A stretch of 64,000 nucleotides of DNA. Source: Candidatus Melainabacteria bacterium 17Bon1m (GTDB taxonomy: Bacteria > Cyanobacteriota > Vampirovibrionia > Obscuribacterales > Obscuribacteraceae). This document shows, piece by piece, positions 1-6,088 of this stretch. Position 1 is the first letter of the stretch; each line of letters starts with the position of its first letter. The stretch lies in NCBI GenBank assembly GCA_032128875.1, contig JAVLKG010000005.1, forward strand, positions 1 through 64,000, read 5' to 3'. The notes beneath the pieces are model-generated. The model saw nothing but the letters and a program-made list of their open reading frames with translations, was not told the DNA's origin and did not search any database. The position numbers and the translations under genes were made by a program.

Positions 1-154
1 TCGCTGAAATTTCCCCTGCTAAGATCCTGGTGGTCAGGGCAGGTCAGGAAAAATCAACGACGCCCAGGACACTCCCAGAAACGCTGAAGAATGGTCGACT
101 GAAATCGGCTATTCTTGCGTTTCTCCCCAGGTCTGTTTGGCCTGGAAAACGAAC

Positions 155-448
155 TTAGAAGTCGTCGTTGAACACGGATCCGATGTTTTCGAAGTACGTC
201 AGCTTGCCCGGGTGAGCAGCTTTCGTCTGTGCGAGCAAGAGATGAATCGTGTCGCCAACGTACTTCTCACCGTTGCAGTAACCGACCACTTTCAGGTGGT
301 GGCTCGCTCTGATGGTCTCGCGATTGGCGTCGAACAACTTCTTCTGAGAGAGCAGCTCGTCCATTTGCGCTTGGGTCAGCGCTTTGGCGGCGACATGCTC
401 TTCCAAGTTGCGCACGTAGTGTGCGTGCGCGATTTCACTACTGGTCAT
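155..448 (-). CDS. Hypothetical protein (97 aa) downstream of trpS
   Basis: ORF 155..619 trimmed to ATG at 448 (MTSSEIAH), because the longer ORF overlaps the trpS 3' end; GGGG upstream; no recognisable motif. Confidence 0.6.
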   Translation of the reverse strand: MTSSEIAHAHYVRNLEEHVAAKALTQAQMDELLSQKKLFDANRETIRASHHLKVVGYCNGEKYVGDTIHLLLAQTKAAHPGKLTYFENIGSVFNDDF

Positions 449-542
449 CTGTCTTACCCCTGTGGTTCGACAGTGGAAATTTGAAAATACGACGGCGGGA
501 GCCGACTTGTTAAGGTCGAGCAACCCGCCGCCGCTTTCCGGT

Positions 543-1548
543 TTACAGGACAAATCCCATCGCCGTGGAGGCTTTGGAGAGTGTCTTCTCGGCAACCACT
601 CGGGCACGTTCGCGTCCATCCCTTATCACCTGAAGCACGCGCTCGGGCTCGTTCATGAGCTCTTTGTAGCGTGCCTGAATCGGTGCCAGGTAATTGACGA
701 TTGTTTCCGCCAGTAGCGGTTTGAACGTGCCATAGCCCATGTCGGCGCACTCGCTGACCACTTCTTCTCGCGTCTTTCCTGTGAGAACTGCGTAAATCGT
801 GAGCAGGTTGTGCACCTCGGGGCGTTCTGGATTGTCGAACTCAAGACCGCGTTGACTGTCGGTCTTGGCGCTCTTTATCTTCTTGCGAATCACCTCCGGC
901 GGGTCCATCAGGTTGATGCGACTGGCGTCTAAGGTGTCTGACTTGGACATCTTCTTGGTGCCGTCCGTCAAGCTCATTACCTTGGCGGTCTCTGTCACCA
1001 GATACGGTGCGGGCAGGACGAGGACGTCTTTGCCCTTTCCGAAGAGACGATTGAATCGCGTGGCGATATCGCGCGTCAGCTCCAGATGCTGTTTTTGGTC
1101 GAGACCGACAGGAACAAGATCGGCGTCGTACAAGAGAATGTCCGCAGCCATGAGGACTGGGTAGTCGAGGAGGGTCAGATTTGCGTCTTCACCTTCTCGA
1201 GCCTTCTCGCGAAACTGAATCATGCGCTTGAGCTGACCCACCGATGTGATGGAGCCCAGCAGCCGAGCCAGTTGCGAGTGCGCTGCCACGTGTGACTGCA
1301 CAAACAGAGTGGACTTTTGAGGGTCCAATCCGCAGGCGAGATACAGGGCGGCGGTGGACAGCACGTGCTGCCCTAATGTCTTAGGGTCGTAGTCCTCGGT
1401 AACTGCGTGCAAATCGGCAATGAAGAGAAAGACCTCATGCGCGTCTTGCAGTTCTATGGCGCTTTTAACGGCGCCAAAGATAGTTCCCGAGGTGAACGTT
1501 GCCGGTCGGGCGGACGCCCGAGAGGATGCGGTTTGTCGTCGATTTCAT
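543..1548 (-). CDS. trpS: Tryptophanyl-tRNA synthetase, encoded in two frames (+1 shift at 1479-1474)
   Basis: AAGGAG SD then ATG at 1548. Frame 0 reads MKSTTNRILSGVRPTGNVHLGNYL (HIGH motif HLGN) then W-R-R-stop. The +1 frame continues GAVKSAIELQ...ADLHAV...YPVLMAADIL...VPVGLDQKQHLELTRDIA...KMSKS to the stop at 543. Joined length 334 aa. Confidence 0.95.
1465..1488 (-). promoter_or_regulatory. Candidate programmed +1 ribosomal frameshift site GGG AAC TAT CTT TGG CGC CGT TAA
   Basis: CTT-T slippery site followed by TGG; matches the prfB site TAT CTT TGA C except for one base; frame-0 stop 3 codons after the TGG. Confidence 0.65.
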
Positions 1549-1569
1549 GACGTTCTCCTTTTGGGATTG

Positions 1570-1657
1570 TGACCGGTTTTAATCGGTCAGTGAATGGCGA
1601 GCTGCAAGATGCAACCCGCCGGTGGAAGTTCGAGTGCAGAAGAAACTGCACCCGAAC
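1570..1657 (-). promoter_or_regulatory. Three consecutive hairpins in the trpS leader
   Basis: Inverted repeats at 1628-1657, 1596-1620 and 1570-1589 fill most of the intergenic region. Confidence 0.45.
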
Positions 1658-1672
1658 AGGTTTGCGAAAAGC

Positions 1673-2125
1673 TCAGCAGCGGCCGAGCTTCGCCTCGACT
1701 GCCGCGACGAGTGACAGGCGAATGCCTGCCAGCACAGCTTCGGGCAGCATCTGGGCTCGGTCGAGAACCGCGTAGGTGCGGTTGTGACCTTCGCCTTTTC
1801 CGCGCAGGTTGAGGCGGCTTTTCTGCTCCTCGCACATGAGCGCCATTGCGGAGCATTCCTGCTTGCCGGCGCTGGTGTTGAGGAAGCCGACGATCATCGC
1901 GTGGTGCAGGTCCAGCGAGTGGAGAACCTGATTGCATGCGATTGCGGAAACTTCACCGATGCCGTAGCGGCGGGCGAAGTGAAGCTTGGAGATGTTCTCC
2001 AGGGTCTCGAGGTCTTCTTCCAGGACGGCGCAGCAGATGCTCAGCAGCAATCCGTCCTCGACCTTCGAGCGCAGCCACCACCATACTTTCATGGTGGCGT
2101 CGTCGTTGTCGTCCAATGGTCTCAA
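1673..2125 (-). CDS. Hypothetical protein with an N-terminal WWW run
   Basis: 150-aa ORF, GAAGGTG before TTG, codon style like its neighbours; alternative ATG at 2092. Confidence 0.65.
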   Translation of the reverse strand: MRPLDDNDDATMKVWWWLRSKVEDGLLLSICCAVLEEDLETLENISKLHFARRYGIGEVSAIACNQVLHSLDLHHAMIVGFLNTSAGKQECSAMALMCEEQKSRLNLRGKGEGHNRTYAVLDRAQMLPEAVLAGIRLSLVAAVEAKLGRC

Positions 2126-2263
2126 GTTACACCTTCTAGACAGACCGGTGTCTGCCGTAGTGCGTTGCGGGCGTCCCAGGGCGCGAATTGCTTCGGCGCC
2201 GGGGACGTTGTGAGGAAACCCTTTGTTGAGCGCGTTGAGCGCTCGAGTGGGCGCGGTCAGCGC

Positions 2264-2644
2264 CTAAGCGTGCGACCAGATCGGAACGAAGTGGCTGCCG
2301 GTGTGTTGCTTGCCGCGCCACGTGAGCCGATACCACTTGTCCTGGACCCATTGCCAGAACGTGAGTTCGTTGCTCTTTCCGTCGAGACGGAAGCGCAGCG
2401 AACCCCAGTGCGAGCCTTGCGGCTCGATGCGTTCGCGCACGGCGCAGTTCATGATCTGGAGCACCTCGCCCAAGTGAGCCTGCGCAGGCACGACAAGCAC
2501 GAGGTCTTCCACGCGCTTGTCACCACCAGTCTCGTACTCGAGGCTGGCGTTGAAAATGCGCGTCGACGCAGGTGCCTTGCCGCGCTCGGCGCAGAGGCAA
2601 TACCCGGAGCAGGGTGGTGAGAATGTTGTAGTCATAACTTTCAC
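2264..2644 (-). CDS. Hypothetical protein (CxxxCxC motif, Trp-rich C-terminus)
   Basis: 126-aa ORF; GGGAGTG SD-like sequence suggests a start at ATG 2635. Confidence 0.6.
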   Translation of the reverse strand: MKVMTTTFSPPCSGYCLCAERGKAPASTRIFNASLEYETGGDKRVEDLVLVVPAQAHLGEVLQIMNCAVRERIEPQGSHWGSLRFRLDGKSNELTFWQWVQDKWYRLTWRGKQHTGSHFVPIWSHA

Positions 2645-2705
2645 TCCCAGGTTGAGGGCTCTGGAACAGCCGTTCCAGAGCCCATTCGATTGACGTTGCA
2701 GGCTG

Positions 2706-4211
2706 TTAGGCCTTCGGACGAACGCCCCAGGCGCAGCGCGGCGAAAGAGCCAGGGTTTCTGGATCCTGCTCCACTGCGACGATGCCGCCGAGGAATTCGT
2801 AGTCGAGCTTGGTGCCGAGGTACTCCCAGATGAAGGGAACCTTGCTCACCGGGCTGATCAGACGGTCGTGGCGAATGGAGGCGTCGCGGCGCTCCAGAAG
2901 CGGGTTGACCATCAGCTTCTCGTCGTCGCGCCAGTCCTTGCAGAACGGGAAGAGCTTCAGCAACCAGCCGTTGATCTTCTCGCCGCCCGACTCACTGCGC
3001 TGCTTGTAGATATCCTCGAAGTAGCGCGTGTCGGCGTCGCCGGCAGCCGCTTTCGCAAGCTTGTCGACGATCTCGATGACGTGACGCAGCCAGGAGTTGA
3101 GGTCCGGATAGCGCTCGTTGAGCTGCCGAACCTTGGCTGCCAGCTTCTGCCAGTCGGCGACTTCGCCCTTGAGGATGATCTCGGGGATGCCGCACATCGT
3201 GGCGACGCTGTACTCGAAGTAGGACTGCATCGAGTCCATGAGCACGATCTGCGAAACGGCTTTCTCGACGGGACCCGTCGTGCCGAAGTCGCTGATGATG
3301 AGCCCATGCGTCTCGTCGCCGATGTAGCCGCGAATGGCGTCGGAGAACTCACCGAAGCAGCCGGCCCAGTCGTTCGTCGGCGAACCGAGAACGAACTCGT
3401 TGCGGATGATCTTGATGGTTTCCTTGCCTTCGTGCGAGACGAAGTGCTTGCGCCACTTCTCCGGGTCTTGCGCGATGTAGGCGGCGAGCCCCTGCGTGAC
3501 GGTCAGCCAGATGTGATCCGGCGTGAGCATCAGCGGGTAGTGCTGGCGGAAAGCCAGGTCGGCAGCAGACACCAGCCCGTGAATCGGGAAGTGGCTGACG
3601 ACTGAGGCTTCGCCTTCACTCACTGCTTCGAGCGTCTTCTTCGGCGTGGCAGCGGGGGCGCCGCGACGGCCGCCACCGCCCATCATCTGTCCGCTGAGCA
3701 CCGCCTCGAACATGCTACCGAGCGTTGTGGACGCGTGCGGCGAGTAGGCGGCGTTGACGCGGCAGACGCGGAAGCGGGTGACGGGAATCGGCTTGGTTGC
3801 GCTCTCGGCGACGGGCGGGGTGACCGGTTCCGGCGTCGGTTCGGTGACCGCGACGGCTGCACTGTTCGTGCCACCGTCATCGGCGACGACGGCTGCGACG
3901 GGCGCCGGAGCCGGTTGGGCGGCGGGAGCAGCAACGGCAGTCGTAGCCGGCGTTTCCACCACTTCCACCGCTTCGGTCACCTGAAGCTTGGCCTCGTCCT
4001 TCTTGCGGCTCACCGTCCATTCGCTGCCCGCGAACTTGGCGATGGCGGCATCGACGGTGGCATCGGCGATGCCTTCGATGCTCACTTCGATGAGCTCTCC
4101 TTCTTCGCTGTCGGCAATTGCCGTCACCAGGGCTTCGAAGAGAGTCGCGACCGCGCGCTGGGCGCGAAGGGCTGCGACTTCTTCCTTGCTGGGAATCGCT
4201 TTGTCGTTCAT
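2706..4211 (-). CDS. DUF4419-family protein with N-terminal extension and Ala/Pro-rich linker
   Basis: HGLVSAADLAFRQHYPLMLTPDHIWLTVTQG, DFGTTG, LMDSMQSYFEY and CGIPEIILKGEVADW recalled as DUF4419 motifs; AGGAG SD before ATG 4211. Confidence 0.8.
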   Translation of the reverse strand: MNDKAIPSKEEVAALRAQRAVATLFEALVTAIADSEEGELIEVSIEGIADATVDAAIAKFAGSEWTVSRKKDEAKLQVTEAVEVVETPATTAVAAPAAQPAPAPVAAVVADDGGTNSAAVAVTEPTPEPVTPPVAESATKPIPVTRFRVCRVNAAYSPHASTTLGSMFEAVLSGQMMGGGGRRGAPAATPKKTLEAVSEGEASVVSHFPIHGLVSAADLAFRQHYPLMLTPDHIWLTVTQGLAAYIAQDPEKWRKHFVSHEGKETIKIIRNEFVLGSPTNDWAGCFGEFSDAIRGYIGDETHGLIISDFGTTGPVEKAVSQIVLMDSMQSYFEYSVATMCGIPEIILKGEVADWQKLAAKVRQLNERYPDLNSWLRHVIEIVDKLAKAAAGDADTRYFEDIYKQRSESGGEKINGWLLKLFPFCKDWRDDEKLMVNPLLERRDASIRHDRLISPVSKVPFIWEYLGTKLDYEFLGGIVAVEQDPETLALSPRCAWGVRPKA

Positions 4212-4322
4212 CAATTCTCCTAGACTCCCTTTGGGGGAGCGTGAAATTTGGATGCGGACGACGCCCTTGCCTTGCGGGAATTCGCAAGGCAAGGGCCGGG
4301 GCAGAGTTGCGACGAGCGATGC

Positions 4323-5753
4323 TTAGATCGGCTCGTTGACGACCTGCAGGTGCGGGAAGACCTCCTGGAAGAAGCCCCCCATCGCCTCGGCCTGTTCAGC
4401 CGACGGCTGGAACGTGCCCGAGTTGCGATTGTAGTGCACCACACCCTGTTCGTCCTTCCAGATTTCTCCAGCGAAGAACGTGTAGGCGCTGTACGCCGCC
4501 ATCAGGACGTGTTTGCTCAGGATCCAGTCCAGCAGCTTGGCACCGCTTGTGATGCGGGCCAGGATGATTGTGGTGATGATTTTCCCGTCCGGCATCCGCT
4601 GCTTCAGCACCACCAAGTTGTACTTGTTGGGCTGCTGCTCGGAGTGCGTGCGCAGCATGTTGTAGACGTCCTGCTCGCTGCGCAGACCCTGCACCGCGAC
4701 GTAGCGCGGCACCAAAATCTTGCGCATCAGCCAGATGACCGGACGCGAGAAGAGCACAGCCTTCTTCGCGCGCGTGGCCAGATTCGGCTTCGCTTGCGGG
4801 AAGGGTTTCAGCGGAGTGGGCTGGAACTTCTCGACGTCGACGCGCGTTTGCGAGCCCTCGAAGAGATTGTGTGCACCCCAGAAGAGCCGCATGATGGCGC
4901 CGGCCGTGCTGGCTGAGGACACCTTCATGTCGATTTCGCGCAGGTACTCGACGTCGTCCGGCAGTGCCGGGGCGACGGGTGCCGTGTTGCGATTGGCCTT
5001 GCGCTTACCACCGCCGCCAACCAGACGCGCGGGCAGACCGGTGACGCCGAGCATGAACTTCGAGAACTTGCTGCCGGCCTTCGCCTTCGCTTCCATGTTG
5101 CGCTGCGAGTGGCGGCAGAAGGTGGTCACTTCAGCGCCGATGATGCGGAGCGCGTAGCGCTCGATGCGGTCGGGCGTGGTGCGGATCACGTCGTACTCGA
5201 TCGGCTTGCCGTCGAAGGTCAGCCCATCGTTGACGAGCGAGGTGAAGAGCGAGTACGGCCAGTAGCGCTTGTGCAGCGGACGGCTTCCCGACTTGAACCC
5301 GGCGCGCTCCATGACGCGCATGCACGCGTTGACGCAGGTCCAGTACTTGTTGCCGTGGAAGTGTTGCATCGCCTCACGGAGCCGTTCAGCCGCCTCAGGG
5401 GGGAGCCCCTTAAGGCGAATGAGCAGACCCGATTGCGCGAAATTGCGCGTGGCTTCGATGACGGAGGGCGCCCGCTTGAGCGACTTGCCCGCGAACTTCT
5501 GGTAGCCGCCCTTGCCGTCGGGGCAGACCAGGTACGCGTTGGGGCGTCCGAAGCCGATGAAGATCTCGTCGCCGCCGGAGAAGACGTCGGAGATCTTGAA
5601 CACCATGAGGTCGGCGACCGCGTTCTCGCGAACGGTGGTGGCATCGATGACCTCCGGAATGAGGCCGCCCATCAAGTCGTTCTCGGGGCGACGTTCGAAG
5701 TGCTTGGCATAGCCGTCGGCGGTGCCGACAGAATTCTTGTCGTTTCGAGACAT
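4323..5753 (-). CDS. Hypothetical two-domain protein (476 aa)
   Basis: AAGGAG SD before ATG 5753 (MSRNDK); strong GC3 bias; C-terminal H...AGE...NSGTFQP motif. Confidence 0.8.
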   Translation of the reverse strand: MSRNDKNSVGTADGYAKHFERRPENDLMGGLIPEVIDATTVRENAVADLMVFKISDVFSGGDEIFIGFGRPNAYLVCPDGKGGYQKFAGKSLKRAPSVIEATRNFAQSGLLIRLKGLPPEAAERLREAMQHFHGNKYWTCVNACMRVMERAGFKSGSRPLHKRYWPYSLFTSLVNDGLTFDGKPIEYDVIRTTPDRIERYALRIIGAEVTTFCRHSQRNMEAKAKAGSKFSKFMLGVTGLPARLVGGGGKRKANRNTAPVAPALPDDVEYLREIDMKVSSASTAGAIMRLFWGAHNLFEGSQTRVDVEKFQPTPLKPFPQAKPNLATRAKKAVLFSRPVIWLMRKILVPRYVAVQGLRSEQDVYNMLRTHSEQQPNKYNLVVLKQRMPDGKIITTIILARITSGAKLLDWILSKHVLMAAYSAYTFFAGEIWKDEQGVVHYNRNSGTFQPSAEQAEAMGGFFQEVFPHLQVVNEPI

Positions 5754-5818
5754 CTGTAGCTCCTTAAAGGCACCACTCATATGGACTGAGCGGTGACGAA
5801 GTTTGAGAGTTGAGAAAC

Positions 5819-6088
5819 TTACTGAGCGGTGTTGCGGCGCGCGTACTTGCGAATGCCGGAGCCGAGGGTGACCACTCCGGAGAGCACGACGAGGTAGCTC
5901 AGTGGCGTGTAAAGCGGAATGGTCTCGTTGCCGCCGGGAGAGACGAGCAGGAAAGCACCGAATGCCAACCAGGCCAGACCGAGCACGACACGACCGGCGC
6001 CACGAATTGCTTCGTTTTTGGCGAACAGTGTTGCCGCGTTGACGACCGAGAGGAGCACAGCTGCGATGAACAGGCTGCTTGCGAGCAT
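5819..6088 (-). CDS. Small membrane protein (3 hydrophobic segments)
   Basis: 89 aa, AAGGAG SD, hydrophobic helices, basic C-terminus. Confidence 0.8.
   Translation of the reverse strand: MLASSLFIAAVLLSVVNAATLFAKNEAIRGAGRVVLGLAWLAFGAFLLVSPGGNETIPLYTPLSYLVVLSGVVTLGSGIRKYARRNTAQ

Follow-up and report, generated by a model that had tools for sequence, protein, structure and literature searches.

Contig JAVLKG010000005.1 of Candidatus Melainabacteria bacterium 17Bon1m (assembly GCA_032128875.1) carries, within its first 64,000 nucleotides (the window), a second trpS gene for tryptophanyl-tRNA synthetase (TrpRS), which lies on the minus strand with its ATG at 1548-1546 and its TAA at 545-543. The gene is divided between two reading frames, and its joined product of 334 amino acids contains no tryptophan (Trp). 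The sole in-frame Trp codon that a ribosome would meet is UGG at the predicted shift site, CUU UGG C. In our assessment the evidence leans slightly towards a spare TrpRS that could be made without Trp-tRNA and that would later have been gated by a prfB-like +1 shift at a hungry UGG codon. The shift itself is supported by nucleotide conservation across four genera, and the loss of Trp is as old as the shift or older.

The trpS gene and its shift site

A Shine-Dalgarno sequence (AAGGAG, 1555-1560) lies 6 nucleotides ahead of the ATG on the minus strand and is kept upstream of the ATG in orthologs. From the ATG, frame 0 encodes MKSTTNRILSGVRPTGNVHLGNYL followed by W-R-R and a stop (TAA, 1465-1467), and the unshifted product is 27 amino acids long. 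The frame-0 segment of 24 codons (M...HLGNYL, 1477-1548) ends with the putative P-site slip codon CTT (codon 24, 1479-1477). The full-length product is obtained when this CTT is joined to GGC (1475-1473) and the T at 1476 is skipped, so that the shift site reads TAT CTT T GG C; the skipped base is the first of TGG (1474-1476), the 0-frame A-site codon. The +1 frame carries on as GAVKSAIELQD... through 310 codons, none of them for Trp, to the TAA at 545-543 (GAVKSAIELQ...MGFVL, 543-1475).

The joined product has HLGN at residue 19, MAADIL at residue 133, GLDQ at residue 148 and KMSKS at residue 199, and the initial annotation was right to describe these motifs as intact. The HIGH-type motif (HxGN) and KMSKS are signature motifs that, together with GxDQ, mark tryptophan-tRNA ligase, a class I aminoacyl-tRNA synthetase. 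Because HLGN sits in frame 0 and MAADIL, GLDQ and KMSKS sit in the +1 frame, the full enzyme requires the +1 shift. No start codon was found in the +1 frame upstream of 1412, and internal initiation would therefore yield an enzyme without the HIGH-type motif. With TIGR00233, the trpS model, the +1-frame part alone reaches 306.2 bits, and the genome search gave 309.8 bits; the curated cut-off of this model is 176.75 bits. The product of the spare copy is a cyanobacterial-type TrpRS with intact catalytic motifs, predicted to charge tRNA-Trp.

The shift site is conserved among relatives. A genome search in 40 relatives identified orthologs at 66-96% identity in eight further genomes, and the extra T is present in all nine genes. 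A wider survey, consisting of a pattern search of 104 genomes of the family and a protein search of 401 genomes of the class, brought the total to 14 shifted genes in four genera. A 20-nucleotide block around the shift site (TCGGGAACTATCTTTGGCGC in the window, 1471-1490, minus strand) is invariant as TCGGGAACT-N-TCTTTGGCGC in all 14 genomic orthologs, despite synonymous differences between genera of up to 0.64-0.74. Its one variable base makes the codon before CTT either TAT or, in one genus, TGT, and CTT TGG C itself does not vary. The 0-frame TAA is found 3-4 codons past TGG in 14/14 orthologs. Upstream of the shift, the frame-0 peptide is conserved while its codons show synonymous changes among the 14 orthologs; downstream, the ratio of nonsynonymous to synonymous substitution rates (dN/dS) of the +1-frame part is 0.08-0.22. 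An exact-pattern scan of metagenome contigs returned 13 stretches, 11 of which are trpS loci with the same architecture. Contigs from all four public sequencing runs examined, one of them an independent DNA run, span the site without an insertion or deletion, and contigs X3-X5 from an RNA library of one sample, possibly the source sample, match positions 48-2400 unchanged. These results show, through nucleotide conservation and purifying selection, that the frameshift is genuine. The initial annotation had reached the same view by a different route, from the loss of Trp; it is the 20-nucleotide block, the dN/dS values and the nearby 0-frame TAA that bear it out.

The block also occurs outside trpS. 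One metagenome contig (L183) has it at 1946-1965 on the minus strand and at 2766-2785 on the plus strand, an inverted pair about 800 nucleotides apart, and another metagenome contig has it once (L194:784-803). In one assembly of the window's genus (G003) the shift site is found twice, at L039 (C91, at a contig end) and at L006/L045 (C187). The N-terminus of the contig-end copy is identical to that of the gene of another genome, and the copy could reflect a strain mixture or a duplicate.

Absence of tryptophan and its history

Zero Trp was found in the joined TrpRS, where about 3.6 are expected at the proteome rate of 1.08% and where the nearest Trp-bearing relatives have 4-5. The coding strand contains 18 TGG triplets, of which one is the 0-frame codon of the shift site and 17 lie outside the translated frame. 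The absence of Trp is therefore not due to a shortage of TGG, with the reservation that the out-of-frame count is no fair null, as codon structure shapes the placement of triplets. The 14 shifted genes from the family genomes, all verified at the DNA level (12 complete and 2 partial), likewise have no Trp, and the same holds for the 11 metagenome trpS loci with the site (7 complete).

Four positions of the protein carry the signal. Residues 30 (GCC, Ala; 1458-1460), 95 (CGG, Arg; 1263-1265), 105 (CAG, Gln; 1233-1235) and 272 (TAT, Tyr; 732-734) are Trp in 85, 85, 85 and 84, respectively, of 85 aligned cyanobacterial-type rows, where they belong to the motifs RNW, ELTW, LNW and MGWG, and all four are also Trp in G084, a Trp-bearing relative in the family. 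The initial annotation, which had listed these positions as usually Trp, is confirmed here, as it is for the sole in-frame TGG lying at the shift site. Among 13 more distant TrpRS, residue 30 is Trp in 8 and residue 95 in 11, and most have E at residue 105 and Y at residue 272. At residue 95, Trp in most TrpRS, Arg is found in 42/42 aligned rows of the Trp-free clade and in protein P0204.

How unusual is a protein without Trp? The genome has 50% G+C, and at its Trp frequency of 1.08%, determined over 3776 crude long open reading frames (ORFs), a protein of 334 residues would lack Trp with a probability of about 0.026. The source genome has 1320 crude ORFs of 280-400 amino acids, a set that contains some spurious ORFs, and 94 of them (7%) are Trp-free. 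Among the 150 best TrpRS representatives from a library of 1.84 billion proteins, 96 are of 300-360 amino acids, and 10 of these 96 are Trp-free. Nine of the 10 are AT-rich-type in composition (FYMINK at least 0.31); the window TrpRS has a FYMINK of 0.22, under the median of 0.27 of the Trp-containing representatives. Zero Trp in one protein taken alone is only weakly beyond chance. Stronger evidence comes from the clade, where each conserved Trp column was replaced on a single branch and no member departs from zero.

We then consider the relatives, defined as the 120 best proteins of a word-indexed protein search. Thirty-six of them have no Trp, and two (P0179 and P0204) owe their Trp entirely to spurious read-through upstream in the +1 frame; the other 82 are ordinary cyanobacterial-type TrpRS with 58-61% identity and 4 or 5 Trp. 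Ten distinct Trp-free proteins (P0166-P0172, P0174, P0175 and P0178; 60-66% identical) are unshifted and of full length, carrying ...VHLGNYLG(A/S)... in a single frame. DNA was checked for two such genes: that in G086, whose product is identical to P0166, reads CAT CTG GGG AAC TAC CTG GGG GCC with no shift, and that in G050, near-identical to P0172, is also unshifted. A scan of contigs with an alignment of the unshifted Trp-free proteins found no further Trp-free loci among the matches listed, which were ordinary TrpRS, the best at 63% identity, from named cyanobacteria. In genomes of the same phylum, TrpRS share 54-60% identity with that of the window, and the named proteins at that level are cyanobacterial. 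psbA was not found in the source genome (93% completeness), and we infer a non-photosynthetic, Vampirovibrionia-like lineage of the cyanobacterial phylum.

In a careful maximum-likelihood tree of 52 rows (17 of 69, near-duplicates and long outgroup rows, were omitted), the Trp-free clade has a support of 100/100 and a stem of 0.29 changes per column. The shifted, read-through and truncated rows form one nested subclade (support 97/90), and the unshifted Trp-free rows fall outside it in two groups; a quick tree of all 69 rows agrees. Shifted versus unshifted is thus a single change of state on the tree, the Trp-free state is clade-wide, and the four conserved Trp columns all changed in one episode, on the clade's stem. 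With the tree rooted on Trp-bearing relatives, the topology indicates that the loss of Trp is as old as the frameshift or older. Since the unshifted sister genes are equally Trp-free, Trp-freeness is not independent evidence for the frameshift, and the corresponding claim of the initial annotation fails on the ten unshifted relatives, two of them DNA-verified. The co-occurrence that it expected between Trp loss and CTT-TGG holds in one direction: all shifted genes are Trp-free, but Trp-free genes also exist without the shift.

The Trp-free gene accompanies another trpS. On another contig, the source genome has a further intact trpS, whose product of 353 amino acids has 8 Trp and is 35% identical to that of the window gene. 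A Trp-containing housekeeping-type trpS accompanies the Trp-free copy in each of the 13 genomes checked (9 shifted in one set, then 2 shifted and 2 unshifted; G073, G075 and G079 were left out). Among the 104 family genomes, Trp-free trpS is present in 16, shifted in 14 and unshifted in 2. Within the window's genus, the gene was not recovered from 5 of 13 genomes, one of which is 93% complete in 20 contigs. These distributions indicate that the Trp-free gene is accessory, in agreement with the suggestion of an auxiliary TrpRS made at the outset, and that Trp-freeness marks the auxiliary-copy clade rather than the frameshift. In G084 (98% complete), the sole trpS is of the cyanobacterial type and keeps 5 Trp (L166/L171, C7:29264-30265). 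The absence from G084 of the housekeeping type of its relatives suggests that the housekeeping trpS of the family has been replaced at least once.

The proposed switch and its alternatives

We propose that the spare trpS would first have lost all of its Trp, on the stem of the clade, and that the enzyme could then still be made when charged tRNA-Trp was short, through either Trp shortage or an inhibited housekeeping enzyme. Later, in one subclade that includes the window, a one-base insertion in the HxGN-Y-L-G motif would have produced UAU CUU UGG C. With ample Trp-tRNA, the ribosome would decode UGG and then terminate 3-4 codons on (27 residues). With a starved UGG in the A site, the peptidyl-tRNA-Leu would slip from CUU to UUU and GGC would be read next, after which the Trp-free body could be translated without further Trp-tRNA. 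The housekeeping enzyme, with its 8 UGG codons, would not be re-made without Trp-tRNA. The tRNA-Leu genes of the genome have the anticodons GAG and UAG. Decoding of UGG depends on Trp-tRNA, the product of TrpRS, and from this we infer a link to regulation. As a two-step design, in which a Trp-free spare TrpRS came first and a prfB-like +1 frameshift (CUU UGG C) then took its sole Trp codon as sensor, the proposal stands in our judgment at an even balance.

The composition of the gene is in line with the cognate-bias hypothesis, which holds that an amino acid is avoided in the enzymes that serve recovery from its shortage, and for which the Trp-free alpha subunit TrpA was the first hint, according to the available text (PMC4209129). 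The spare TrpRS, which would be needed when Trp-tRNA is missing, is likewise without its own amino acid. That text develops and tests the hypothesis on biosynthetic enzymes and not on aminoacyl-tRNA synthetases (PMC4209129), and here only the spare copy is Trp-free whereas the housekeeping copy has 8 Trp. The trpE-G-D-C-F-B-A operon of the source genome (L202, G000:C14:36817-43423) encodes 0, 0, 1, 0, 2, 2 and 1 Trp, respectively, a total of 6 in 2112 residues (0.28%, versus 1.08% for the proteome), and therefore fits the cognate-bias idea. Selection for synthesis without Trp-tRNA is in our view the best reading of the Trp-free state.

Several points weigh against this proposal. The loss of Trp is a single evolutionary event, and so unreplicated, on a long stem branch, and both Trp-free ORFs in the genome and Trp-free TrpRS in other lineages occur at the frequencies given above. 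Sense codons are normally decoded fast, and basal shifting at UGG could be very low. Folding around the site revealed no conserved RNA structure, with consensus folds near 0 kcal/mol. The possible pairing of GGGA with UCCU at the 3′ end of 16S rRNA is weak, with about 4 bases only. The RNA-library contigs cover the gene yet cannot show its transcription, ends or strand. For the unshifted Trp-free genes, no sensor was identified other than one candidate upstream ORF (uORF) in one genome.

With regard to stimulators, the GGGA belongs to an invariant TCGGGAAC that ends 3 nucleotides before CTT, and it is the only part of that sequence that can pair with the anti-Shine-Dalgarno CACCUCCUUU. In E. 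coli prfB, a Shine-Dalgarno-like stimulator lies about 3 nucleotides upstream of CUU. The GGGA, which could pair over about 4 bases only and is farther from CTT than the E. coli element, is at most a candidate for a prfB-like stimulator in trpS. A GGCGC/GCGCC hairpin near the site is found in the window's genus only.

The Trp-free state might instead be a neutral by-product, in which a fast-evolving spare copy, arising by duplication or transfer, lost four catalytically dispensable Trp, and, changes to Trp being rare, the count then stayed at zero, with no selection for starvation-proof synthesis. We consider this unlikely, yet to be taken seriously. It agrees with the long stem (0.29 changes per column), with the working Trp-free TrpRS of other lineages (10/96 representatives) and with the 94 Trp-free among 1320 crude ORFs of 280-400 amino acids. 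Moreover, cyanobacterial relatives rarely gain Trp either (4 or 5 Trp in 82/82), and the failure to regain Trp therefore says little. However, none of the four columns with Trp in 84-85 of 85 rows was spared, and the probability of their joint replacement at the average stem rate is about 0.25^4 = 0.004, a rough estimate from stem length that concerns one evolutionary episode and would be lower for slowly evolving Trp sites. The composition is not AT-biased, unlike that of 9/10 other Trp-free TrpRS, the single-copy relative G084 retains 5 Trp, and the one in-frame UGG that was retained is located exactly at the slip site.

It is also conceivable, if rather improbable, that the spare enzyme is mainly an antibiotic- or self-resistance TrpRS against indolmycin-like inhibitors, turned on when the housekeeping enzyme is blocked, with Trp-freeness and the UGG shift serving a drug response and not nutritional starvation. 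A second copy just 35% identical to the housekeeping one would suit this role and matches the pattern of antibiotic-insensitive duplicate synthetases, including the indolmycin-resistant TrpRS1, described in the accessible part of a review (PMC9437257). The proposed sensor would answer any drop in Trp-tRNA, and the genome makes its own Trp through the trpEGDCFBA operon. The surroundings of the gene argue the other way: no biosynthetic cluster is evident beside it, with DUF4419 the only family in seven neighboring ORFs scanned, and the flanking genes differ between genera. The Trp-poor trp operon also points to real Trp shortage in the lineage.

That the extra T is a sequencing error, or the gene a decaying pseudogene, which would make the Trp count meaningless, can be set aside as extremely improbable: the extra base does sit in a short T run and automatic callers do cut the gene to 273-304 amino acids, but the identical T recurs in 14 assemblies of four genera and in 11 metagenome loci, none of the four runs covering the site has an insertion or deletion, dN/dS is 0.08-0.22 downstream with the frame-0 peptide conserved upstream, and every catalytic motif is intact.

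Candidate sensors, neighboring genes and related systems

A scan of positions 1-6000 of the window against Rfam (E at most 1) found no T-box or other leader RNA. Upstream of the unshifted gene in G086, a 29-codon uORF with a GTG start (L155:1415-1504, plus strand) has 3 Trp codons within 7 residues, and its TGA stop overlaps the ATG of trpS (ATGA); it may be a Trp-sensing leader of the unshifted gene. No terminator-like site was found for this uORF, and the other unshifted locus (L156) offers no more than an ORF of 9 codons, one of them for Trp.

Immediately upstream of the shifted trpS, a gene (1673-2125, minus strand) encodes a protein of 150 amino acids with no Pfam family and with WWW near its N-terminus (MKVWWWLRSK...). 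We rejected it as a Trp-sensing leader: the protein is conserved in same-genus loci, one of which also has a paralog without WWW, and among the loci listed the gene is not beside trpS in other genera. The source genome has two very different tRNA-Trp(CCA) genes, at G000:C1:269308-269381 and G000:C1:1087994-1088066. The first is GC-rich with an encoded CCA and is 86-97% identical within the genus. It is present in 13/104 family genomes, including G005, G006, G010 and G011 of the same genus, which lack the shifted trpS, and the other three genera with the shifted gene yielded no copy of it in a search that covered this tRNA-Trp gene and not the other one. As a dedicated partner of the spare trpS it was rejected, since its distribution does not track the gene. 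Farther upstream, positions 2706-4292 (minus strand) encode a protein of 528 amino acids that has a DUF4419 domain and a linker rich in Ala, Pro and Val. A Pfam scan of the seven ORFs neighboring trpS assigned a family to this one only, and the neighbors therefore offer no functional link; the genes flanking shifted trpS vary between genera.

Among known systems, the closest comparison is with prfB. The genome's own prfB (L203, G000:C7) reads GAA TAT CTT TGA C with a classical +1 continuation and no obvious GGGGG-type element upstream, and its TAT CTT TGA C differs from the trpS site TAT CTT TGG C by one base. Both genes have an early in-frame block, the flanks UAU CUU UGx C, a +1 slip of peptidyl-tRNA-Leu from CUU to UUU (predicted for trpS), and an A-site codon whose decoding depends on the gene's own product. 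They differ in that the trpS A-site codon is the sense codon UGG and not a stop, in that TrpRS would act indirectly through the charging of tRNA-Trp, and in that trpS has no clear Shine-Dalgarno-like stimulator at the E. coli spacing. In yeast Ty1, the hungry-codon site CUU-AGG-C supports +1 frameshifting, because a slow A site lets tRNA-Leu slip. The trpS heptamer is also CUU-NGG-C, with GGC read after the slip; Ty1, however, is a eukaryotic element in which the shift yields a fusion protein in fixed proportion and depends on a rare tRNA rather than on regulated aminoacylation.

S. coelicolor trpRS1 is under a Trp-codon leader attenuator. This TrpRS1 and D. radiodurans TrpRS II are auxiliary or inducible enzymes (PMC9437257), each encoded, like the gene studied here, by a divergent second trpS beside a housekeeping one for special conditions. 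They belong to other lineages, and the available text of that 2022 review of duplicated synthetases mentions for them no frameshift or Trp-free composition, nor was a frameshifted or Trp-free trpS found elsewhere in it. In human cells, Trp depletion induces frameshifting at UGG, as the accessible portions of two papers describe (PMC13751296, PMC8942854). Starved UGG codons can thus provoke ribosomal frameshifting, but there it is an error of stressed cells and not a conserved switch encoded in a gene. Regulatory hungry-codon frameshifting is discussed only as an open question in the parts available of a 2016 recoding review (PMC5009743), and no TrpRS frameshift was found in those parts or in the corresponding text of a 2025 prfB survey (PMC12421855). 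Full-text literature searches found no frameshifted or Trp-free trpS, although supplementary tables of frameshift surveys could list one. The proposal would bring together two known elements, RF2-type autoregulatory frameshifting and cognate-amino-acid avoidance.

At present, the shifted trpS genes are annotated as truncated proteins of 273-304 amino acids. If the proposal is true, they would be the first case in which programmed frameshifting at the cognate sense codon of an aminoacyl-tRNA synthetase autoregulates that enzyme, and RF2-style autoregulation, which works at a stop codon, would be carried over to a sense codon. In effect, the ribosome would gauge the supply of one charged tRNA and respond by making the enzyme that restores it, which would provide a natural, sequence-defined case of regulatory hungry-codon frameshifting. 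Because the family holds Trp-bearing single-copy genes, Trp-free unshifted genes and Trp-free shifted genes, the order of the evolutionary steps can be read within it.

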